Positions 4,381 to 24,099 of a stretch of 32,000 nt of DNA are shown here, one piece after another. The notes under the pieces were generated by a model that ran no database searches, was not told the origin of the DNA, and saw only the letters and a program-made list of their open reading frames with translations. The position numbers were made by a program, and so were the translations under genes. The stretch is taken from positions 1,043,234-1,075,233 of the forward strand of contig NZ_JAAHIH010000004.1 in the NCBI RefSeq assembly GCF_010671925.1, read 5' to 3'. How positions within the stretch are numbered: the stretch's first letter is position 1; every line of letters starts with the position of its first letter. Source of the stretch: Moorena sp. SIOASIH. GTDB taxonomy: Bacteria > Cyanobacteriota > Cyanobacteriia > Cyanobacteriales > Coleofasciculaceae.

Positions 4381-4453
<73 letters not shown>

Positions 4454-4482
4454 TAATGCTGACCTAATACCTAATCACCTCT

Positions 4483-6219
4483 CTAGGGTTTTTGCTGATT
4501 ATCCCCTTTCTTAGTTTCAGCAGCTTTACTGGGTTGAGACTGTTTTTTCAACTGAACAAAAAGTTGAAAGCGGGTACGATTGGGGTCGATTTTGGCAACC
4601 GTTAAGCCGATGGTATTAATTGCCTTTGCTAAGGTTTCTTGCTCGGTTGGTAGTTGGGCGATATTGAGATTACTGCTGTTGAGGGTACGCTCAACATCAA
4701 GGAAAAATTGACCAGTGTTGGGATTAGGTTTGGTTGGTACGGTGTTTTGAAACAGAGGTGCTTGAATTAGTGTCTTTTGGGGTTGAGGGACCACTTCACT
4801 AGCAATGGGGGCTCCTAGGGTGAAGAAGACTACATTCCCTTCTAACCAGCCGTGGGTAGCATTTACCCCTCCTAGAGTAGCTGTCCAGCTCACCATTGGT
4901 TGACCGTTCACCTGAGTTTCTACTACGGGTAACTGATAACTATTAGTGATTAAGTCATCCAATTGCTGTAGAGTTGCTTGAGCACTAGAGCGATCGCTTA
5001 CTTTTACCATCAATGCTATCCCAGCTCCTAAGGGAGCAGAGTAAGGGTTATCCTGAAGCGCCAGTTGTTCGGGAGACATTGGTATTAAGGCTAGGGCAAA
5101 CTCCCCTTCCATCCAAGATAGTAAATCCTTTTCCCAATCCAAGCCTAAGGTGGTTTTCAATCCAGCTTGGAAATTGTCTGGGGAAATGGGCATTAAAGTA
5201 TTTAATGCTCCTTGTTCGGTATAGTATTGCCAAAATTGTCTGATGTTACCCCCAGATATAATGGCTAGGGTACTCGCTGGCATCCGTCTAGGCAAAAAAG
5301 AACCGCTAGTTTCGTTACTGGCCTTAACAGTGCTTCTGGGTTTGACCCAGGAAATCCCTTCAAAACTTATCCCCTTTGGTGCTAGGGTTACTGTTGTGAC
5401 TATGTCTTGCTTTAAGGGTTTAGCTGCTGTTGTTTCAGGCTGCTCCTGGGCATCAGCGGCTACTGCGGCTAAAAAAGTTGGTAGATTAATATACAACTGA
5501 GCAAAGGACTGATCAGTTTTAATCTGAGCGATCGCATCTTGGTAGCCAGACTTACTAGCTACGGAAATAGCTCCTTTGTAGGTGTCAATCACCTGATCAA
5601 TAATTTTGGGGTTTTCACTCACTACTAGAAAACGCCCCAGCACTGCTACTGAGTACTTTTGGGAGTTACTCTTGTTGGTTTCGTAAATCTGAATACCTCT
5701 GTAGGTTCTCTCAACCCACTGTTTCCCTGATTGAGACTTGGCTTTTTTGAACAGCTCCATTGCTTCGGTTAGTTTGTCAATGGGTAGTACAATCAAACTG
5801 GGAAAAACTGATTGATCGTTTGATAAGACTGCTGGTGATAAATCTCTAGGGCTAAAGTATGCTAGGGTAACTTCTTGACCCAACCAAGGTTTGATATCTT
5901 GCTGATAGTTGTAGCCGTTAGCAGTTAGTAAATTTTCCTGCAACTGAGCAAGCTGTTTTTCCAAAACTTGTCGAGATTCAGTTGTGCCATACTTTAGCAA
6001 CTGTTGCCATTGTTTGGAGTCTGTAGAAATTGATGCGGTAAAAAAGGCATTTTGCGGAACTAACTGGGTACTTACTTGAATATTTGGTTGTAAAATATGC
6101 CGCCGCACTAGCAACCAGTAAGCGGTTACTCCACCGCCTACTACCAAGACGGCTGCTGCAAAAATTAGCAGTAGAAAAGATTTCTTGTTTTTGGTCATGG
6201 ATTTGATTGCTAGGGACAT
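4483..6219 (-). CDS. Membrane-anchored hypothetical protein, possibly DUF3352 family (cyanobacterial)
   Basis: A 578-aa ORF with an N-terminal TM helix (FLLLIFAAAVLVVGGGVTAYWLLV) followed by a large soluble region. The size and layout match my recollection of DUF3352. No catalytic motif was recognised. Confidence 0.5.
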   Translation of the reverse strand: MSLAIKSMTKNKKSFLLLIFAAAVLVVGGGVTAYWLLVRRHILQPNIQVSTQLVPQNAFFTASISTDSKQWQQLLKYGTTESRQVLEKQLAQLQENLLTANGYNYQQDIKPWLGQEVTLAYFSPRDLSPAVLSNDQSVFPSLIVLPIDKLTEAMELFKKAKSQSGKQWVERTYRGIQIYETNKSNSQKYSVAVLGRFLVVSENPKIIDQVIDTYKGAISVASKSGYQDAIAQIKTDQSFAQLYINLPTFLAAVAADAQEQPETTAAKPLKQDIVTTVTLAPKGISFEGISWVKPRSTVKASNETSGSFLPRRMPASTLAIISGGNIRQFWQYYTEQGALNTLMPISPDNFQAGLKTTLGLDWEKDLLSWMEGEFALALIPMSPEQLALQDNPYSAPLGAGIALMVKVSDRSSAQATLQQLDDLITNSYQLPVVETQVNGQPMVSWTATLGGVNATHGWLEGNVVFFTLGAPIASEVVPQPQKTLIQAPLFQNTVPTKPNPNTGQFFLDVERTLNSSNLNIAQLPTEQETLAKAINTIGLTVAKIDPNRTRFQLFVQLKKQSQPSKAAETKKGDNQQKP

Positions 6220-6376: not shown

Positions 6377-7510
6377 TTAGGTGTAGATCGTATCTCGTTG
6401 CTGATAAGGACGCCCAAGGGATTGAATGGCTGCTTGTAATGTTTCTACTTCCATACAGGTACCCCCCATAGCTCCGGCCATGGTGGTGATATGCTCCTCC
6501 ATTAATGTGCCACCAATATCATTACAACCCCATTTAAGGGCATCTGTCGCCCCAGCAAGACCAAGTTTTACCCAACTGGGTTGGTGATTTTTAATCCAGT
6601 TCCCTAGGAAAATCCGAGCTACAGCTGTGAGTAATAGAGCATCTTTCAAGACCGGTTGATCCCGTCCAACACGATGGCGTAATGGTTTCGGGGCTTCCTG
6701 TCCGACAAAGGGCAGTAAGATAAATTCAGTGATTAAGCCAGGGTATCCCTGGTTACAGGCTTTTTGTTGAAGCGATCGCAATTTTTCCAAGTGTGTCATT
6801 TGTTGTTGGGGTGTCTCAATATGACCCGAGAGCATGGTACTGGTTGTGGGCATTCCCAGTTGATGAGCTGTTGACACAATCTCTAGCCAAGTGGCGGTAT
6901 TGGTCTTTTCTGGACAGAGAATACGTCGGACATCATCATCTAAAATCTCTGCTGCTGTTCCTGGCATTGAACCAACACCAGCCTCTTGTAGTTGAGCAAT
7001 TACCTGAGCATAGCTAAGTCCATCTTGCTCAGCAATAAATTGCACTTCCTGGGGAGAGAAAGCATGGAGATGCAGCTGAGGAAAGTCTTGCTTAATGGTT
7101 TTTACCAACCCTAGGTAATAGGGCAAGGTTGACCCATTCATCTTTGCCTTGGGGTTGAGTCCGCCCTGCATGCAAATTTCTGTAGCATTCCGCCGCACCG
7201 CATCCGCTGCCTTTTGATGAATTTGCTGCCAATCGAGCCAATAAGCACCCTCGTCAGAGGCATCCCGCCGAAAAGCACAGAAACTACAGTGCTGGGTACA
7301 GATATTTGTAAAGTTGATATTACGGTTGATAACATAGGTAACGGTATCCCCGACTTGTTTATAGCGCAACCGATCCGCAGTTTCTTGAATTGACGCTACG
7401 GCCTGAGGTTCAGTTTGCTTCAAAAGCACAACCCCTTCATCGGGTGATATATCAACACCCCCTAAGGCACGGTTGAGAATAGTATCAACACTAGTGGTAA
7501 TCACAGGCAT
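6377..7510 (-). CDS. cofH: Radical SAM enzyme, CofH-type (FO synthase subunit 2; 5-amino-6-(D-ribitylamino)uracil-L-tyrosine 4-hydroxyphenyl transferase)
   Basis: A 377-aa ORF. It has [24 protein letters not shown] (CxxxCxxC radical-SAM cluster in the CofH/MqnC-like context), then [28 protein letters not shown] and [10 protein letters not shown]. Cyanobacteria use the Men rather than the Mqn pathway, which favours CofH over MqnC/E. Confidence 0.7.
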
Positions 7511-11078: not shown

Positions 11079-11516
11079 GTAGGGTGGGCAGTGCCTAGCA
11101 ACCCGATGGCTAGCTTGGTGAATCTGCCTGATCCACTGCCCACCCTAGATCTACTTGATATCAGTAGGGTGGGCAGTGCTTAGCAACCCGATGGCCAGCT
11201 TGGTGAATCTGCCTAATCCACTGCCCACCCTACATCTTGATATCAGTAGGGTGGGCAGTGCTTAGCAACCCGATGGCCAGCTTGGTGAATCTGCCTAATC
11301 CACTGCCCACCCTACATCTTGATATCAGTAGGGTGGGCAGTGCTTAGCAACCCGATGGCTAGCTTGGTGAATCTGCCTAATCCACTGCCCACCCTACATC
11401 AAGCTCAATACAAATACAGGGTTGTATAGTAAAAAAGTGATTAATCGTAGGGTGGGCAGTGCTTAGCAACCCGATGGCCAGCTTGGTGAATCTGTCTGAT
11501 CCACTGCCCACCCTAC
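11079..11516. repeat. Five copies of a 70-bp palindromic element (15-bp arms GTAGGGTGGGCAGTG / CACTGCCCACCCTAC, about 40-nt loop); copies 2-4 form an exact 82-bp tandem period
   Basis: The copies lie at 11079-11148, 11164-11233, 11246-11315, 11328-11397 and 11447-11516. Their loops differ by only 1-3 SNPs. The 12-bp spacers ATCTTGATATCA are identical. Confidence 0.9.
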
Positions 11517-16098: not shown

Positions 16099-16354
16099 TC
16101 CCGACTCCCGACTCCCGACTCCCGACTCCCGACTCCCGACTCCCTAATAAAATCCACCTCACCCCATTCAGAAGTATGTAGGGTGGGCAGTGCAAAAGAT
16201 AGATCAGAGCAGGTGGGGATAGGATTAGTAGGCACTGCCCACCCTACTAACTAAAAAAATCCACCTCACCCCATTCAGAAGTATGTAGGGTGGGCAGTGC
16301 AAAAGATAGATAAGAGCAGCTGGGGATAGGATTAGTAGGCACTGCCCACCCTAC
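16099..16354. repeat. Composite repeat: (CTCCCGA)x6-7, then two 107-bp tandem units each holding a 70-bp GTAGGGTGGGCAGTG palindromic element (loop variant B)
   Basis: The heptamers span 16099-16144 and the hairpin elements 16178-16247 and 16285-16354. Both are preceded by AAATCCACCTCACCCCATTCAGAAGTAT. Confidence 0.9.
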
Positions 16355-17234: not shown

Positions 17235-17467
17235 TATTTAGATCTCCGTCCCAATGCCGCAATTATATAGCGTTTTTCAATTGGGTGAGTTACAGAGTCC
17301 TGGGTTTTAGGGAACAGAGGATCTGGGAATCTGGAATCGGGAACTTCGGATAAAGGAAGATTACGAACAACAGCAGAGGATTTCTTGGTGTGATCTCAAA
17401 TCAGGATTGGGTTTGATGATCTCCCGCGCGTTTGAGATACTTATGAGGTACATTCAATTTTCCCATG

Positions 17468-17655
17468 GGTCACTCCCGACTCCCGACTCCCGACTCCCTA
17501 AAAAAATCCACCTCACCCCATTCAGAAGCTCCCTACTCCCTAAATAAATCCACCTCACCCCATTCAGATGTAGGGTGGGCAGTGCAAAAGATAGATAACA
17601 GCAGCTGGCGATAGGATTAGTAGGCACTGCCCACCCTACTAACTACTAACTAACT
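17468..17655. repeat. Second, same-orientation copy of the composite repeat seen at 16099-16354
   Basis: (CTCCCGA)x3 + AAATCCACCTCACCCCATTCAGA (twice) + palindromic element 17570-17639 + CTAACTACTAACTAACT. Confidence 0.9.
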
Positions 17656-17710
17656 CACCCAATTTAAAAATACTATAATAAACAGAAACTGTGAGTAATC
17701 TCCTTCAACT

Positions 17711-18217
17711 ATGGAACCATTAGCCGCTGCCGTTGTCGCTATTTCTACTGTGCTCGCCACTAAAGCCTTAGAAAAAACTGGGGAAAATGTCGGGCAAGTT
17801 GTTTGGGACCAGACTAGCCAGTTTGTAGAATCCCTGAGAAACCAGTCTCCAGATACAGTAATGGCTATTGAGAAAACCCCAGAGGTACCTCTTAATTATG
17901 CCGACGTGGTATTGGAAGTAGAAGCAGCAGCGAAGCAAAATCCCGAAGTTGCCCAAGCCATGGAGCATTTAGTGGCTACTGTTGATGCTGAAGCTTTGCC
18001 TAACTTAGAGGAAATTCTTGAAAAGATTACCAAAGCCTTGGAATCCCACGAGGCTACTGGTGAGAATTACAACAATGAAAACGTGAAGAACTTTGCCAAA
18101 GGGGATATTATTAATCAACATAATCCTAATTTTGGAGAAAAACAAACTAATATTGGAAATATTGGAGAAAACCAAACTATTCAAAGAGGCGAAAATTTTC
18201 AAAATATTAATATTTGA
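17711..18217 (+). CDS. N-terminal module of the NLR-like locus: alpha-helical domain plus an N/Q/G-rich tail, ending at TGA 18215-18217, which is in frame with the downstream NB-ARC ORF
   Basis: A 168-aa ORF. It opens with a hydrophobic first helix (MEPLAAAVVAISTVLATKALEK), followed by an acidic helical region. The tail GENYNNENVKNF / GDIINQHNPNF / GEKQTNIGNI / GENQTIQR / GENFQNINI forms pseudo-repeats. Confidence 0.6.
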   Translation: MEPLAAAVVAISTVLATKALEKTGENVGQVVWDQTSQFVESLRNQSPDTVMAIEKTPEVPLNYADVVLEVEAAAKQNPEVAQAMEHLVATVDAEALPNLEEILEKITKALESHEATGENYNNENVKNFAKGDIINQHNPNFGEKQTNIGNIGENQTIQRGENFQNINI

Positions 18218-21200
18218 CTGCAGTCGCCTCGGAGTGAGGTTAAACAAACTCGACCAAATCAAGCACCCCCACTACCTCCGTATTATGTCGAACGCCCGGA
18301 AGTAAGCCAACGACTAAAACAAATTCTTTTATCTGAAGAAACCGCTAAAGCTGGCACCTTAGTTGTTAGTGCCATCTATGGTTTAGGAGGCATTGGGAAA
18401 TCCACCATTACTGCCGCCTTAGCCCATGATCCAGAGGTTCAATCCCATTTTCACGATGGGATTTTTTGGGCAACCTTAGGTCAGCAGCCTGATATTTTAT
18501 CCTTTCTAAGTACGTGGATACAGGCATTAGGAGATTATGACTTCAAACCGATTAATATTGATAGCGCTTCTTTACAATTAAGAACGTTATTATCCGATAA
18601 AAAAGCCTTACTAGTCGTGGATGATGTTTGGCATCCTGACCATGTTGAACCCTTTCGAGTAGCCGGTGGTGGCTGTCGGGTTTTAGTGACCACCAGAGAA
18701 GCTCCGGTTAAAGGTGCGATTCGCTATGATTTAGACGTGATGACTCCAAAGCAATCCTTGGAGTTATTAACGTCTTGTTTACAGCTTTTTTCAGATGAAT
18801 CGACCTCACTCCCTTTAGCTGCAAGCCCCCTAAATCCCCCAATTCTGGGGGACTTTAACTCAAGTTACCCCCAAAGTTGGGGGGCTAGGGGGGCGAAAAT
18901 TGCTGTAAACAACGAGTTAACTAATCAAGAACTCGACTATGCTAAAACCTTAGCAAAAACTGTCGGCTACTTACCCCTAGGATTAGAATTAGCTGCTGCC
19001 CAAGTTAGGGATGGATTCTCTTGGGAAGAGTTACTGGGTGAGTTAAAAGCAGAAATTGCTGATTTAGAAGCTTTAGATCGATTGGAAGCAGAGGAAGAGC
19101 CAAGTGACGCTAAGCGCAAAAACTACAGTCTTGTCGCTTCCTTTAATCTCAGTTTAAAGCGATTATCCCCCGAGAGATTGAAAAAATTTGCTTGGTTAGG
19201 GGTACTGCCCGATGATGTCACCATTACTGAAACCATGGCGACTACGTTATGGAACTGTAATTCATTTAAAGCCAAAAAGACTTTACGATACTTACGGCAA
19301 AAAGCCTTATTACTACCTGGTGTATCTAGTACCCAAGACACTAACTATCGCCTCCATGACCTGTTACATGATTTAGCCCGTAATCTGCTGCAACCAGAGC
19401 TAGGATTATCAATTACCGAAGCTCATCGGCAATTATTAGAACGTTATCAAACTAAGACCGATAAGGGATTATGGCATACGTTACCTGATGATGGTTATAT
19501 CTATAACCACTTAACCTGGCACCTAGAGAAAGCTGAAAAGATAGATGAAATTCATCAACTCCTGAAAGAAGAAACTCCAGAAGAAGATAACGGTTGGTAT
19601 TGGCAGTGTGAGAGACAGGGAAATACTGCTAATTTTGTTAAGGACCTATCGAGAGCTTGGGCAATAGCAGCAGCCAATTTTACAGAAAATCCTACAGAAT
19701 CGATTAGTTTACAGTGTCGGTATGCTCTGATTACCACATCCCTCAACAGCTTGGCTGGAAATATTTATCCAGAGTTAATGGCAGCATTACTGGAGAACAA
19801 AATCTGGACTGCAGCTCAAGCACTAGCTTATGTGCGACAGATTAAAGATTCTAGTAGGCAAGCAGAGGGTTTGGAGGCAATTAGTGAGTATCTTCCCCTT
19901 TCTTTATTACCGGAAGCTTTAGATTGCGCCACAGGGATTTCCGATGAATACTACCGACCCTATGCCTTAAGAGCCTTAGCCCCCCACTTACCGGATCTGT
20001 TGTTACCCCAAGCCTTAGATTGCGCCACAGGGATTTCCCATGAATACTCCCGAGACTATGCCTTAGTCGCCTTAGCCCCCCACTTACCCGATGTGTTGTT
20101 ACCTAAAGCCTTGGATTGCGCCAGAGGGATTTCCGATGAAAAAGACCGAGCCTATGCCTTAGTGGCCTTAGCCCCCCACTTACCCGATGTGTTGTTACCC
20201 CAAGCCTTAGATTGCGCCAGAGGGATTAAGTCTGAATACCACCGAGCCGATGCCTTAGTCGCCTTAGCCCCCCACTTACCGGATCTGTTACCGGAAGCCT
20301 TAGATTGCGCCAGAGGGATTAAGTCTGAATACCACCGAGCCGATGCCTTAGTCGCCTTAGCCCCCCACTTACCGGATCTGTTACCGGAAGCCTTAGATTG
20401 CGCCAGAGGGATTTCCGATGAAAAAGACCGAGCCGATGCCTTAGTCGCCTTAGCCCCCTACTTACCTGATGTGTTGTTACCCCAAGCCTTAGATTGCGCC
20501 AGAGGGATTTCCCATGAATACTCCCGAGCATTAGCCTTAATCCGCTTAGCCCCCCACTTACCGGATGTGTTACCGGAAGCCTTAGATTGCGCCATAGGGA
20601 TTTCCGATGAAAAAGACCGAGCCGATGCCTTAGTCGCCTTAGCCCCCCACTTACCCGATCTGTTGTTACCCAAAGCCTTAGATTGCGCCAGAGGGATTTC
20701 CCATGAATACTCCCGAGCCAGAGTCTTAGTCGCCTTAGCCCCCCACTTACCGGATCTGTTACCGGAAGCCTTAGATTGCGCCAGAGGGATTTCCGATGAA
20801 TACTCCCGAGCAGAAGCCTTAGTCGCCTTAGCCCCCCACTTACCGGATGTGTTACCGGAAGCCTTGGATTGCGCCAGAGGGATTAAGTGTGAAGGCTTCC
20901 GAGTTTTTGCCTTAGTCGCCTTAGCCCCCCACTTACCGGATGTGTTACCAGAAGCCTTAGATTGCGCCAGAGGGATTTCCCATGAAAAAGAACGAGCCGA
21001 TGCCTTAGTCGCCTTAGCCCCCCGCTTACCCGGTGTGTTGTTACCCCAAGCCTTAGATTGCGCCAGAGGGATTTCCCATGAATACTCCCGAGCCTATGCC
21101 TTAATCCGCTTAGCCCCCCACTTACCGGATGTGTTGTTACCCAAAGCCTTAGATTGGGCCAGAGGGATTTCCCATGAATACTCCCGAGCCGATGCCTTAG

Positions 21201-22360
21201 TCGCCTTAGCCCCCCACTTACCGGATGTGTTACCGGAAGCCTTGGATTGCGCCAGAGGGATTGACCATGAATACTCCCGAGCCAGAGTCTTAGTCGCCTT
21301 AGCCCCCCACTTACCCGATCTGTTGTTACCCAAAGCCTTAGATTGCGCCAGAGGGATTGACCATGAATACTCCCGAGCAGAAGCCTTAGTCGCCTTAGCC
21401 CCCCACTTACCGGATCTGTTGTTACCCCAAGCCTTAGATTGCGCCAGAGGGATTTCCGATGAATACTCCCGAGGCCATGCCTTAGTCGCCTTAGCCCCCC
21501 GCTTACCGGATCTGTTGTTACCCAAAGCCTTAGATTGCGCCACAGGGATTTCCCCTGAAAACTACCGAGCCTATGTCTTAGTCGCCTTAGCCCCCCGCTT
21601 ACCGGATCTGTTGTTACCCCAAGCCTTAGATTGCGCCAGAGGGATTTCCCATGAATTGTTCCGAGCCCATGCCTTAGTCGCCTTAGCCCCCCACTTACCC
21701 GATCTGTTACCGGATGAAGCCTTAGATTGTGCCAGAAGGATTTGGAATGAATGCGAGCGAGCATTAGCCTTAGAAGCCTTAGCCCCCCACTTACCCGATC
21801 TGTTGTTACACCAAGCCTTAGATTGCGCCACAGGGATTTCCCCTGAAAACTACCGAGCCTATGCCTTAGTGGCCTTAGCCCCCCACTTACCGGATGTGTT
21901 GTTACCCAAAGCCTTAGATTGCGCCAGAGGGATTAAGTCTGAATCAGACCGAGCCCATGCCTTAGTGGCCTTAGCCCCCCACTTACCGGATGTGTTGTTA
22001 CCCAAAGCCTTAGATTGCGCCAGAGGGATTTCCCATAAATTATACCGAGCCGATGCCTTAGTCGCCTTAGCCCCCCACTTACCCGATCTGTTACCGGAAG
22101 CCTTAGATTGCGCCAGAGCCATTGGGGATGAATCCGAGCGAGCCGAAGTATTATTACAGGGCTTGATCAAGAGATTAACTCCTTCGTCAGTTGATTTTCC
22201 TCTTTGGCAACAAATTCTTGATGGTTTAGCTAGTCTAACCCGTCCCAATTTTCTTGAAGCTCTTCCTAAATTAGCTCCTTTAATCATTAAGTTTGGGGGT
22301 ATTGAAGCCCTAAGAGAAACGGTGGCAGCGGTTGAAGATGTTAGCCGATGGTGGAAGTAG
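18218..22360 (+). CDS. STAND NTPase: NB-ARC domain + about 24 HEAT-like 31/32-aa repeats + helical C-terminal cap. There is no canonical start codon before the P-loop, so it is probably one gene with 17711-18217 (a pseudogene or recoded gene)
   Basis: The frame is open from 18218. The motifs are P-loop GLGGIGKST (18380-18406), Walker B/kinase-2 LLVVDDVW (18608-18631), RVLVTTRE, a GLPL-like GYLPLGLELAAAQV (from 18965) and an MHD-like RLHDLLHDLA (19349-19378). The first ATG/GTG/TTG in frame is GTG 18617, which lies inside Walker B. Confidence 0.8.
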   Translation: MQSPRSEVKQTRPNQAPPLPPYYVERPEVSQRLKQILLSEETAKAGTLVVSAIYGLGGIGKSTITAALAHDPEVQSHFHDGIFWATLGQQPDILSFLSTWIQALGDYDFKPINIDSASLQLRTLLSDKKALLVVDDVWHPDHVEPFRVAGGGCRVLVTTREAPVKGAIRYDLDVMTPKQSLELLTSCLQLFSDESTSLPLAASPLNPPILGDFNSSYPQSWGARGAKIAVNNELTNQELDYAKTLAKTVGYLPLGLELAAAQVRDGFSWEELLGELKAEIADLEALDRLEAEEEPSDAKRKNYSLVASFNLSLKRLSPERLKKFAWLGVLPDDVTITETMATTLWNCNSFKAKKTLRYLRQKALLLPGVSSTQDTNYRLHDLLHDLARNLLQPELGLSITEAHRQLLERYQTKTDKGLWHTLPDDGYIYNHLTWHLEKAEKIDEIHQLLKEETPEEDNGWYWQCERQGNTANFVKDLSRAWAIAAANFTENPTESISLQCRYALITTSLNSLAGNIYPELMAALLENKIWTAAQALAYVRQIKDSSRQAEGLEAISEYLPLSLLPEALDCATGISDEYYRPYALRALAPHLPDLLLPQALDCATGISHEYSRDYALVALAPHLPDVLLPKALDCARGISDEKDRAYALVALAPHLPDVLLPQALDCARGIKSEYHRADALVALAPHLPDLLPEALDCARGIKSEYHRADALVALAPHLPDLLPEALDCARGISDEKDRADALVALAPYLPDVLLPQALDCARGISHEYSRALALIRLAPHLPDVLPEALDCAIGISDEKDRADALVALAPHLPDLLLPKALDCARGISHEYSRARVLVALAPHLPDLLPEALDCARGISDEYSRAEALVALAPHLPDVLPEALDCARGIKCEGFRVFALVALAPHLPDVLPEALDCARGISHEKERADALVALAPRLPGVLLPQALDCARGISHEYSRAYALIRLAPHLPDVLLPKALDWARGISHEYSRADALVALAPHLPDVLPEALDCARGIDHEYSRARVLVALAPHLPDLLLPKALDCARGIDHEYSRAEALVALAPHLPDLLLPQALDCARGISDEYSRGHALVALAPRLPDLLLPKALDCATGISPENYRAYVLVALAPRLPDLLLPQALDCARGISHELFRAHALVALAPHLPDLLPDEALDCARRIWNECERALALEALAPHLPDLLLHQALDCATGISPENYRAYALVALAPHLPDVLLPKALDCARGIKSESDRAHALVALAPHLPDVLLPKALDCARGISHKLYRADALVALAPHLPDLLPEALDCARAIGDESERAEVLLQGLIKRLTPSSVDFPLWQQILDGLASLTRPNFLEALPKLAPLIIKFGGIEALRETVAAVEDVSRWWK
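18824..18895. repeat. 72-bp G/C-hairpin small repeat inserted in frame within the NB-ARC domain
   Basis: CCCCCTAAATCCCCCAATTCTGGGGGAC...CCCCCAAAGTTGGGGGGCTAGGGGGGCG contains the hairpins CCCCCA-ATTC-TGGGGG and CCCCCAA-AG-TTGGGGG. It encodes SPLNPPILGDFNSSYPQSWGARGA between the RNBS-B-like and GLPL-like motifs. A related CCCCCCTTAGTAAGGGGGG repeat lies intergenically at 24205-24223. Confidence 0.65.
19916..22170 (+). repeat. Coding tandem array of about 24 units of 93/96 bp (31/32 aa), consensus ALDCARGIxxExxRAxALVALAPHLPD(L/V)(L)LP(E/Q/K)
   Basis: Counted by eye from the translation. Units at 20204-20296 and 20297-20389 are 93/93 identical. The backbone is nearly invariant at DNA level, and variation clusters at a few codons. 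Confidence 0.9.
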
Positions 22361-22445
22361 GGAAAAGGGAGTAGGGAGTAGGGAGTAGGGAAGAGATAAG
22401 AGGCAATAGGCAATAGGCAATAGGCAATAGGTAAGAGATAAGAGT
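22361..22445. repeat. Composite heptamer array (GGGAGTA)x3 - GGGAAGA GATAAGA - (GGCAATA)x4 - GGTAAGA GATAAGA
   Basis: Direct reading; it starts immediately after the STAND stop codon. Confidence 0.9.
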
Positions 22446-22651
22446 TAATCAAGGATAGAGGAATTATGATTAGCTTTACTGGGTGTGGCGTGAACGGGTG
22501 TTAGGATTCAGTTGATGCCTGTGCCATGGGGAAGAATTGCGCTAAGCTAATGTTAGCTTAATCATGGGCAAGTTTCGTTTTGCTAACTCACCTAGACTAT
22601 AGGTAAGCTCAATCAATAATAATCAACACTCTCATCAAAACAATACTATCC

Positions 22652-22933
22652 ATGGAAAACGTCAATCAAATTACCTTAAATTTACCCACAGATTTGCTGA
22701 AAACTACAGAAGAACTAATTCAGACAGGACTAGTAAAGAATCTTGAGGAATTAGTTGTATTAGCCTTGCATCATGAAGTTGCAAAAATTAAAGGATTACA
22801 GCCAAACAATCAACAGCTACCACAAAATAGCAATGGTGTAGATGATCCCATTTGGGGACTCGGAGAGAATCCAGTTGTGGGTGGAGTCAGTGATGCTTCT
22901 ACATCTATTGATCAGTATTTATATAACTATTAA
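22652..22933 (+). CDS. Antitoxin-like protein (ribbon-helix-helix/CopG-like), VapB-type partner of the downstream PIN toxin
   Basis: A 93-aa ORF. ITLNLPTDLLKTTEELIQTGLVKNLEELVVLALHHEV fits a beta-strand plus two helices. Its stop lies 2 nt before the PIN gene start (TAATAATG). Confidence 0.6.
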   Translation: MENVNQITLNLPTDLLKTTEELIQTGLVKNLEELVVLALHHEVAKIKGLQPNNQQLPQNSNGVDDPIWGLGENPVVGGVSDASTSIDQYLYNY

Positions 22934-22935
22934 TA

Positions 22936-23343
22936 ATGAATTGCTTGTTTTTAGACACAAGCTATGTTATAGCTTTAGAATTAGCGGATGACCAAAATCA
23001 CTCAATCACTTTAAATCATTGGCAAAGTTTAGACAGAAAGACTTTAAAGTTAGTCACAACGTCTTATGTTTTTGATGAAGTGGTAACCTTCTTAAATAGT
23101 CGTTATCTTCATAGTAAAGCTGTTGAAATAGGAAAACGTTTACTAACCAGCTCTGTAGTAGATTTGATTCAGGTTAATGAAGTTCTTTTTTTAGAAGGGT
23201 GGGAATATTTTCAGAAATATCAAGATAAATCGTATTCGTTAACAGATTGCCTATCTTTTGTGGTGATGAACAAGCTAAAAATTAATGTTGCTTTAACATT
23301 TGATCAACATTTTGTACAAGCCGGATTTATTAAGTTACCATAA
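22936..23343 (+). CDS. vapC: PIN-domain ribonuclease toxin (VapC family)
   Basis: A 135-aa ORF. It has MNCLFLDTSYVIALE (first acidic PIN residue), FDEVVTFL, and the SLTDCLSFVVM...ALTFDQHF distal acidic residues. The size and gene pairing are typical of VapBC. Confidence 0.8.
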   Translation: MNCLFLDTSYVIALELADDQNHSITLNHWQSLDRKTLKLVTTSYVFDEVVTFLNSRYLHSKAVEIGKRLLTSSVVDLIQVNEVLFLEGWEYFQKYQDKSYSLTDCLSFVVMNKLKINVALTFDQHFVQAGFIKLP

Positions 23344-23538: not shown

Positions 23539-24099
23539 TTATGTTACATCTTCATACAAAGCCTCAAGACTAGTTCTAAAATCCACAGTTTCTAGATGAA
23601 TCTCACTGCCCGGATAATAAAATTGTAATGTCCAAATTCCCTCGGAATTTCGGCGGAAGCAATCTAAGCGTTTACGGTTTTGACTAATTAAAACATATTC
23701 AACCAAGGTTTCTAATTGTTGATAGTCCGAAAATTTATCACCCCGGTCAAAGGCTTCAGTTTTGGGAGATAAAACTTCCACAATTAAGCAAGGATATTTT
23801 TTATAGTTAGTCAATTCTCGGTCTCTGGCATCGCAAGTCACGAAAACATCAGGATAATAATAACTATTGGATGCTTCGACATAAGCTTTCATATCTGCCA
23901 TATAAACCCGACAGCCAGTGCCCCTGACATGATTTCTTAACAGGGCAAATAAGTTACCGGCAATAGTAACATGGGCATCACTCGCCCCAGCCATGGCATA
24001 GACTTCTCCATCACTATACTCGTGTTTGATGGAACTATCTTCTTCGTAGGATAGATACTCTTCTTTGGAAATGTAATTGGGGCTTTTATCAGCAATCAT
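23539..24099 (-). CDS. Uma2-family endonuclease (DUF820, PD-(D/E)xK-like putative restriction endonuclease)
   Basis: A 186-aa ORF with YLSYEEDSSIKHEYSDGEVYAMAGASDAHVTIAGNLFALL, PDVFV and LIVEVLSPKTEAFDRGDKFSDYQ. This is the characteristic D...EVxS..T...D...K..Y pattern of Uma2 proteins, which are abundant in cyanobacteria. Confidence 0.85.
   Translation of the reverse strand: MIADKSPNYISKEEYLSYEEDSSIKHEYSDGEVYAMAGASDAHVTIAGNLFALLRNHVRGTGCRVYMADMKAYVEASNSYYYPDVFVTCDARDRELTNYKKYPCLIVEVLSPKTEAFDRGDKFSDYQQLETLVEYVLISQNRKRLDCFRRNSEGIWTLQFYYPGSEIHLETVDFRTSLEALYEDVT

Follow-up and report, generated by a model that had tools for sequence, protein, structure and literature searches.

The question raised by the locus described here is how the NTPase part of an NLR-type protein could be made when it has no start codon of its own and is separated by an in-frame UGA from the small open reading frame (ORF) in front of it. 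The locus lies in a stretch of 32,000 nucleotides (nt) from the cyanobacterium Moorena sp. SIOASIH (contig NZ_JAAHIH010000004.1), which is called the window and to which coordinates refer unless a locus is named. ORF1 starts with ATG at 17711 on the forward strand and encodes 168 amino acids (aa), and its last sense codon (18212-18214) is followed by TGA at 18215-18217, after which the same frame stays open for 1380 more codons, up to TAG at 22358-22360. The first 133 of these codons (18218-18616) contain no ATG, GTG or TTG, and the first canonical start, GTG 18617, lies within the Walker B segment LLVVDDVW, downstream of the P-loop GLGGIGKST at 18380-18406. A codon walk bore out what had been proposed in the original prediction for this DNA: the two ORFs share a frame split by a single TGA, the first canonical start lies past the P-loop, and a hypothetical read-through product would have 168+1+1380 = 1549 aa. 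From the comparative evidence below, we consider it probable that programmed read-through of this UGA yields two products that share one motif, an abundant effector consisting of a Bell domain with an amyloid tail and a rare fusion of this effector to the NLR.

The genetic code is not reassigned here, as TGA is the ordinary stop of four other long ORFs in the window, and genome-wide reassignment of UGA was therefore ruled out. A +1 frameshift of the prfB type at CUU/UUU-UGA-C was also ruled out, because frame 0 encodes the sensor and a stop ends the +1 frame at 18305.

The frame was walked in 83 genome loci, namely 80 fetched loci with a relative of ORF1, the window, M. producens JHB and Gloeothece citriformis PCC 7424. 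The JHB locus is syntenic with the window (PPK2, effector-NLR, a small ORF with a PIN-domain gene, and Uma2, in this order) and has the same TGA. In the finished genome of PCC 7424, the small ORF ends in TGA-CTG-SAG-TCG and is in frame with the downstream NB-ARC protein, and Nostoc linckia NIES-25 and Microcystis FBCC-A1114, whose genomes are finished too, likewise have TGA junctions. A recent nonsense pseudogene and a sequencing or assembly error had both been offered as explanations of the split gene; all that speaks for them is that an in-frame stop is there, and clear decay in a small number of related loci (L060, L012 and L055). Both explanations are refuted by the presence of the same TGA in the JHB orthologue, in the three finished genomes and in more than 90 independent loci overall. 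The pseudogene is further contradicted by the part downstream of the stop, where pN/pS (the ratio of nonsynonymous to synonymous change) among eight Moorena copies was 0.36 over codons 11-54 after the UGA, compared with 0.41 in the rest of NB-ARC. Judged from these sequences, the downstream part is under purifying selection. Over codons 1-10, synonymous change itself was depressed in the same copies (pS 0.073, pN/pS 1.16). The chance that the stop is an error or a fresh mutation is, in our estimate, practically nil.

A TGA followed by the motif C-Y-N-N-N-N-Y-C-G-Y-Y-Y was found in 49 of the 83 genome loci, which are called the UGA class, and the stop was TGA at every one of these 49 junctions. 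In all but two of them (47/49) the frame stays open for another 138-1380 codons and encodes a STAND NTPase or a different sensor; whenever a P-loop is present, it is encoded in frame 0. Among the remaining 34 loci, TAA and TAG are the usual stops and the frame shuts within 0-45 codons, except in L028, L049 and L055, each of which is separately explained. The association between the motif and a long in-frame continuation was strong (Fisher p = 5e-17). The UGA class is present in at least 20 genera, including Moorena, Hormoscilla, Dapis, Microcystis, Gloeothece, Xenococcaceae, Nostoc, Calothrix, Scytonema, Stigonema, Nodularia, Tolypothrix and Rhizonema. By scanning metagenome contigs for the exact pattern, 44 further loci were detected. 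The TGA closes the upstream ORF in each of them, usually one encoding a 135-180-aa 'MEP...' protein (one of these ORFs is broken at a point further 5', and several run off the end of their contig), and most of the loci have a STAND protein encoded in the continuing frame.

The proteins on both sides of the junction are diverse. Downstream partners include NB-ARC-TPR, NACHT-HEAT-NCAB1, NACHT/nSTAND3, AAA_16/22-TPR, CHAT-TPR and PsbP-like proteins. The partners other than NB-ARC and NACHT were observed in L041 and L048 (Tolypothrix, Aulosira), L072 (Nostoc), and L011 and L024, and are a PsbP-like domain of about 215 aa, CHAT-TPR and AAA_16/AAA_22-TPR. On the upstream side, the cassette in the metagenomic locus L109 (contig JAAUYH010089630.1, motif at 1610-1642) follows an alpha/beta-hydrolase of at least 285 aa (DUF676/PGAP1-like), so the cassette is not restricted to Bell domains. 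As effectors and partners are so diverse, the junction behaves as a portable cassette. We lean, with slightly less assurance than for the window itself, towards the view that a dedicated cassette for programmed UGA read-through, made up of UGA-CUR, an 8-nt spacer and a hairpin or possible pseudoknot, is found across the phylum and links a cell-death effector with sensors that can be exchanged (NB-ARC, NACHT, AAA-TPR, CHAT and others), with one prion-like motif shared between an abundant effector and a rare effector-sensor fusion.

The stop appears to be old. A protein search with ORF1 returned 170 relatives; the 120 of them that were listed all stand alone, have 128-174 aa and come from Moorena, Microcystis, Nostoc and Gloeothece among other genera. 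A protein identical to ORF1 is recorded for Moorea (Moorena) sp. SIOASIH. An exhaustive search among 50%-identity representatives gave 209 relatives, nearly all of 120-170 aa. Because relatives of ORF1 are almost all standalone proteins of 120-175 aa, the stop is taken to be ancient. In two protein searches no intact homologue with a sense codon at the position of the stop was found, which suggests that the stop itself is under selection. A comparison of orthologues at codon 169, in which a sense codon such as TGG was to be looked for, gave the opposite result: TGA is kept, and the sole TGG variant (L055) is a decayed locus.

Several individual loci depart from this pattern. In L055 (Dolichospermum metagenome-assembled genome, 4440-4475) TGG (Trp) replaces TGA and the hairpin is kept (TTT TGG CAG CAC TCG TCC GAC GGG GAA CGG ACA AAG); this locus looks decayed, with an ATA start and an in-frame TAA in NB-ARC. 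L012 (4001-7700) and the protein P0121 (Moorena) are deletion derivatives in which a Bell remnant is fused directly to NB-ARC and the tail, the UGA and the hairpin are gone; L012 has early in-frame stops besides the deletion. In L028 (Dapis sp., 4439-4985), TGA-CTG is present without spacer or hairpin and the frame runs for 180 codons into a short TPR protein, so this junction may be degenerate or a variant. Sense-codon fusions to the sensor were sought and none was found; the long Bell proteins that were found are joined to other modules. Examples are L025 (4001-6130) and the proteins P0255, P0300, P0325 and P0357, in which a Bell-type N-terminal domain is fused, with no stop between, to HEAT repeats (about 700 aa) or to dynamin-like GTPase proteins (820-900 aa).

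Leaky termination was the explanation in the original prediction that the comparison favours, and it had been proposed there from the +4 C alone. The 8-nt spacer and a covarying hairpin are conserved as well. In the logo of the 47 in-frame junctions, an A/U-rich -1 codon precedes the invariant UGA, and the spacer and a 5-bp inverted repeat follow it, with C at +4 in 46/47, U at +5 in 43/47, A at +8 in 42/47, G at +9 in 41/47 and C at +11 in 46/47. The third codon is TCG in 36 of the 47 junctions and CCG in 9, although TCG is the rarest serine codon in the genes of the window (6.9%). The 5-bp stem (G-Y-C-Y-G / C-R-G-R-Y) begins 8 nt past the UGA. Across 46 sequences, 97.3% of the cells of this helix were paired, compared with at most 40% in slid controls, and compensatory changes were seen in three of the five pairs (U-A 22 vs C-G 20; C-G 22 vs U-A 14; G-C 39 vs C-G 5). 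The same helix was predicted independently by RNAalifold, and it was 100% paired in 63 distinct junctions with 8-nt loops. Between JHB (GCCUG-GGAGG-CAGGU) and the window (GCCUC-GGAGU-GAGGU), the stem differs by a double change, G to C and C to G, which turns the encoded peptide from PGRQV into PRSEV.

Several features known from read-through signals are therefore found together at these junctions, namely a conserved leaky context, an in-frame coding continuation with no initiation site and a covarying 3' stem at about 8 nt. Read-through is favoured because the stop is exclusively UGA in the weak +4 C context, and because a conserved spacer with a covarying stem 8 nt downstream has the geometry of the type II and type III viral signals. 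The type II signal of eukaryotic viruses consists of UGA-CUA or UGA-CGG, an 8-nt spacer and a 3' stem (PMC3159437). Together with the type III signal, the pseudoknot of murine leukaemia virus (MuLV), it shares with the present element the UGA, the C-U-R, an 8-nt spacer with conserved nucleotides, pairing supported by compensatory changes, and a short major and a long minor product (PMC3159437). Unlike these viral signals (PMC3159437), the element described here belongs to a bacterial host, in which RF2 and not eRF1 acts, has a stem of only 5 bp, lies in a chromosomal immune locus and not in a replicase or gag-pol gene, and is known from sequence.

An extension of the hairpin into a pseudoknot is possible. 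The loop contains a purine run that could pair with a pyrimidine run 9-10 nt downstream, as GGG/CCC in most loci, GAG/CUC in Moorena and AGG/CCU in Microcystis. In a fixed register 88.9% of the cells were paired and one pair had a compensatory change; the energy of the loop-to-downstream duplex was -5.9 kcal/mol, compared with -3.7 +/- 0.19 in shuffles, and permutation of the partners gave 52/500. Measured against shuffles the potential to pair is real, but the permutation and the fixed-register count do not establish a pseudoknot. A 3-bp mini-stem including the stop (G-A-C/G-U-C) was also considered and was rejected, as it had no covariation and two of its pairs were broken, in 10 and 6 cells out of 45.

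A conserved RNA element behind a UGA could also mean that the UGA is decoded by dedicated machinery, either as selenocysteine through a SECIS-like (selenocysteine insertion sequence) hairpin or by a UGA suppressor tRNA encoded in the genome or by a phage. In bacterial selenoprotein genes a conserved hairpin follows soon after the UGA, and the layout seen here, a UGA with a close conserved hairpin, is the same. However, the UGA lies in a disordered linker and not in a redox motif, there is no Cys at its position in homologues or fused relatives, and the loop (AACGGGAA, GGAGU in the window) begins just 13 nt past the UGA. The selenocysteine trait was undetected in Cyanobacteria (PMC1794560), which counts against this option, and for a suppressor no tRNA gene was found within the window. 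Dedicated decoding is thus considered very improbable.

Another possibility is that the RNA element mainly serves a different role, as a processing or stability site, a regulator binding site or a ribosome pause, and that the sensor is expressed by some other mechanism. Spacer and loop are conserved in sequence too, which suggests a specific recognition factor, and the hairpin is thermodynamically weak. A scan of 17400-18700 against Rfam (E <=10) detected no matching family, only chance matches of the microRNA type on a palindrome upstream. Against such a role, the element is confined to effector/sensor junctions in a fixed register with the UGA, with no extra copy of the junction motif in about 630 kb of flanking sequence, and its 8-nt spacing is that of recoding stimulators (PMC3159437). 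It would also leave the translation of a start-less NTPase under purifying selection unexplained. We regard this explanation as quite unlikely.

The remaining alternative is that two proteins are made, by termination at the UGA and an immediate restart without a canonical start, for example at CUG 18218, with the spacer and hairpin holding the ribosome; the result would be a coupled NLR without the Bell domain and tail. This option had been raised for the adjacent CTG, and some observations agree with it: the +1 codon is CUG in 25 of the 49 motif loci and GUG in one, the NCBI annotation of one Moorena genome begins the NLR right after the stop (P0122), and Bell/NLR pairs are often overlapping or closely spaced and presumed to be polycistronic. 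However, the other 23 loci have CUA (16), CCA (4), or CUC, CUU or GUA (one each), none of them a known bacterial start, and CUG and CUA exchange freely as synonymous leucine codons. The region from -15 to -1 upstream of the junction is A/U-rich and contains no Shine-Dalgarno-like sequence. In 10 of the 47 in-frame loci there is no canonical start before the P-loop, or in the first 60 codons where no P-loop was found, and none of the remaining in-frame loci has a start at a conserved position. Reinitiation would also leave the exclusive use of UGA unexplained, as TAA or TAG would couple equally well, and the reinitiated NLR would be without the signalling motif that its two-gene relatives carry. 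A restart at this position is therefore disfavoured and seems unlikely to us. Read-through is favoured because no conserved initiation signal is present, with the +1 codon swapping freely between CUG, CUA and CCA, and because no intact sense-codon variants were found and the logic of a shared motif fits.

This logic is best seen in the relatives of the TAA/TAG class (for example L044, L046, L038 and L043), in which the NLR opens with an ATG of its own and the C-terminal motif of the effector is repeated at the N-terminus of the NLR. In L044 the effector ends ..KLAEKIGQVVMPGGKGKIENQSF before its stop codon and the NLR then begins MSEDSRKFAEKIGQVVMPGGQAYIGTQ.., while in L046 ANINIGGDVKGVSAYDISGGS.. 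is paired with ANVNIGRDVQGVSAYSISGGT... This layout is the Bell/BASS amyloid-signalling design of Dyrka et al. 2020 (bioRxiv 10.1101/2020.01.06.895854). In the UGA class, by contrast, neither a start codon nor a second copy of the motif lies between the UGA and NB-ARC, and the peptide encoded by the hairpin leads straight into the N-terminal segment of NB-ARC, ..QAPPLPxYYVERPE.., or ..IPYRGSVHFVGRE.. in other genera. A conventional Moorena NLR (P0141), which has motif, linker and NB-ARC in one ORF, can be aligned colinearly with the read-through sequence of the window from one side of the stop to the other. As the UGA-class NLR has no start or motif of its own and the read-through sequence of the window is colinear with P0141, read-through would recreate the motif-duplication architecture with a Bell domain placed in front.

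That the N-terminal module looks like a Bell-type effector with a candidate amyloid-signalling tail had not been recognised in the original prediction. ORF1 begins with a hydrophobic 'MEP..' helix (N-terminus MEPLAAAVVAIS), in agreement with the motif described for Bell/Bab domains (bioRxiv 10.1101/2024.11.07.622273). Its AlphaFold2 model is a six-helix bundle with a predicted local distance difference test (pLDDT) score of 81-93 over residues 1-115, followed by a disordered, N/Q/G-rich region with pLDDT <50 over residues 117-168. ORF1 relatives with 41-61% best-segment tblastn identity are the effectors of motif-sharing Bell/NLR pairs, and a second effector subfamily scored an hhalign probability of 94%. 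The tail of ORF1 and the N-terminal motif region of P0141 can be aligned colinearly.

The sensor part matches NB-ARC (E = 4e-19, 69 bits vs a cutoff of 23.5) and APAF1_C (E = 1.6e-6, 28.5 bits vs a cutoff of 22.8) in Pfam, and both a P-loop (GLGGIGKST) and a Walker B motif (LLVVDD) are present, followed by C-terminal repeats as in STAND/NLR NTPases. Tandem Repeats Finder detected an array with a period of 96 nt, 23.3 copies and 85% matches. The architecture read earlier from this frame, a helical N-terminal module, an N/Q-rich tail, NB-ARC and repeats, was therefore correct in its order, and only the description of the repeats as HEAT-like lacks support, since Pfam classed the 32-aa units as neither HEAT nor TPR.

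Compared with the Bell/BASS-NLR pairs of multicellular bacteria (Dyrka et al. 2020, 10.1101/2020.01.06.895854) and with Bab/Agp, an E. coli pair that has been characterised by experiment (bioRxiv 10.1101/2024.11.07.622273), the locus has the same small helical 'MEP..' effector with a short C-terminal motif, collinear with and immediately upstream of an NB-ARC or NACHT repeat protein. It differs in that the NLR has no start and no second motif, so that the motif expected on a separately initiated NLR was not found, and in that the two ORFs are in frame, parted by a UGA and an RNA element. Neither the BASS paper (10.1101/2020.01.06.895854) nor the Bab/Agp paper (10.1101/2024.11.07.622273) mentions read-through or stop codons.

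We therefore propose that the locus is one translational unit with a programmed leaky UGA. Ribosomes would start at AUG 17711 and most of them would stop at UGA 18215, giving a 168-aa effector made of a membrane-targeting Bell-type helical domain and a disordered N/Q-rich tail. A minority would decode the UGA by a near-cognate tRNA, probably tRNA-Trp, promoted by the weak UGA-C context, the conserved 8-nt spacer and the 5-bp hairpin (possibly a pseudoknot), which would be placed to meet the mRNA entry channel. The long product would be a 1549-aa fusion of Bell domain, amyloid tail, NB-ARC NTPase and 32-aa repeats, and the motif of the free effector would thus be present at the N-terminus of the sensor as well. 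Once a trigger is sensed by the repeats, NB-ARC could oligomerise and the tails could cluster as an amyloid nucleus, which would template the abundant free effector and lead to cell death, as abortive infection or as regulated cell death. By analogy with HET-S/NWD2 and Bab/Agp we infer the last steps of this scheme, namely amyloid templating, membrane killing by the Bell domain and sensing of the trigger by the repeats.

A number of points weigh against this proposal. Read-through itself is inferred from evidence that is comparative throughout, and we know of no chromosomal bacterial gene for which read-through stimulated by an RNA structure has been established. The hairpin has just 5 bp and single sequences fold like their shuffles (z -0.5 to +0.6); going by the alignments, its support is evolutionary, through covariation, and not thermodynamic. 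The pseudoknot extension lacks statistical support and is tentative. The conservation of the frame could come in part from the junction being inherited as one block. As for the effector, ORF1 has the hallmarks of the Bell type in its sequence relatives and its helical model, and its fold resembles no PDB entry significantly: in a Foldseek search nothing reached E <= 0.001, the best-scoring entries being the Rx CC domain (E = 0.57) and the Bcl-2 family (E about 1), and Pfam gave zero matches to ORF1. Its tail looks amyloid-prone and is a candidate by sequence for this property. The hidden Markov models of PADLOC for defence systems matched neither ORF1 nor the sensor part.

The proposed product can also be compared with all-in-one NLRs, such as the fungal HeLo-NLRs, and Avast2 and bNACHT proteins with a conserved N-terminal motif (cited in 10.1101/2024.11.07.622273), in which effector, NTPase and repeats are likewise combined. 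It differs from them in that the fusion would come from a fraction of ribosomes beside an excess of free effector, and in having an amyloid-type tail between effector and NTPase. The searchable full-text literature, whose coverage leaves out most subscription journals, yielded no description of read-through at Bell/NLR loci or in NLRs of cyanobacteria or other bacteria.

If the proposal is correct, bacterial ribosomes and RF2 would be subject to the same kind of recoding control as the eukaryotic systems. To our knowledge, the established examples of read-through that depends on a dedicated RNA stimulator come from eukaryotic viruses and a small number of eukaryotic genes, and those in bacteria are essentially a few phage cases. 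In phage Q-beta, the UGA of the coat gene is read at low frequency by the bacterial ribosome to give the functionally required A1 protein, and we know of no dedicated downstream structure that is needed for it. The element described here differs from this phage system in being cellular, structured and spread across a phylum, and it would be, as far as we know, the first structured read-through signal in cellular bacterial genes.

Read-through at these junctions would also be a third genetic solution for coupling an NLR to its effector, beside motif-duplicated pairs and all-in-one fusions, and an economical means of keeping the motifs of sensor and effector identical while their ratio is skewed. 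The element would offer a compact natural module of about 35 nt with which two protein products could be made in a fixed ratio. Read-through would account for the expression of many start-less cyanobacterial NLR genes, and would reveal a class of Bell/NLR systems that screens for a motif shared by two annotated proteins would miss. Gene callers start such NLRs at an internal GTG or TTG, which truncates the P-loop region; in JHB the called start is at locus position 6634, six codons before the P-loop, and in the window the first available start lies past it. Many database entries for cyanobacterial NLRs therefore probably give the wrong size and N-terminus.

The features of the locus are collected in Table 1.

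Table 1. Positions in the window of the features of the effector-sensor locus.
Feature	Position	Strand	Basis
Putative Bell-type helical effector domain, ORF1 residues 1-115; N-terminal hydrophobic helix MEPLAAAVVAISTVLATKALEKTGE	17711..18055	+	AlphaFold2 model, homologues
Disordered N/Q/G-rich C-terminal tail of ORF1, residues 117-168, candidate amyloid signalling motif (..NFGEKQTNIGNIGENQTIQRGENFQNINI)	18059..18214	+	
In-frame UGA, proposed read-through (recoded) stop	18215..18217	+	TGA at 49/49 motif-bearing genome junctions
Conserved 8-nt spacer CUGCAGUC, consensus C-U-R-N-A-G-Y-C	18218..18225	+	Junction position counts
RNA hairpin: GCCUC 18226-18230, loop GGAGU 18231-18235, GAGGU 18236-18240	18226..18240	+	Covariation
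Tentative pseudoknot partner CUC, pairing with loop GAG 18232-18234	18249..18251	+	
Sensor part without its own start: linker, NB-ARC, APAF1_C, repeats, TAG stop	18218..22360	+	Pfam
NB-ARC NTPase; P-loop 18380-18406, Walker B around 18605-18628	~18311-18772	+	
APAF1_C helical domain	~19415-19564	+	Pfam
Tandem 96-nt (32-aa) repeat array, presumed ligand-sensing domain	19907..22118	+	Tandem Repeats Finder

Some further observations were made around the locus. Antisense ORFs are present inside or beside the 96-nt array (20883-21764, 21094-21543 and 21859-22452, all on the minus strand) and are probably by-products of the repetitive sequence and not genes. Directly after the stop of the NLR (22356-22444) there are tandem heptamers, AGTAGGG x5 and AGGCAAT x4.4, overlapped by a 21-nt unit x2.8.

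A dispersed palindromic repeat occurs at 11079-11462, 16154-16354 and 17508-17639, with all of its copies intergenic. It consists of GTAGGGTGGGCAGTGC (eight times), an inverted partner GCACTGCCCACCCTAC (three times) and a companion direct repeat CCACCTCACCCCATTCAGA (four times), and may be an element similar to miniature inverted-repeat transposable elements (MITE) or repetitive extragenic palindromes (REP). One full copy lies 70-200 nt upstream of the start of ORF1 and is the source of the only, chance-level Rfam matches. On the 3' side of the NLR, a 93-aa ORF and a PIN-domain protein form a VapBC-like toxin-antitoxin pair (22652-23343), which is followed by a putative endonuclease of the Uma2 family (23539-24099); the PIN pair and Uma2 are likewise neighbours of the locus in M. 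producens JHB.

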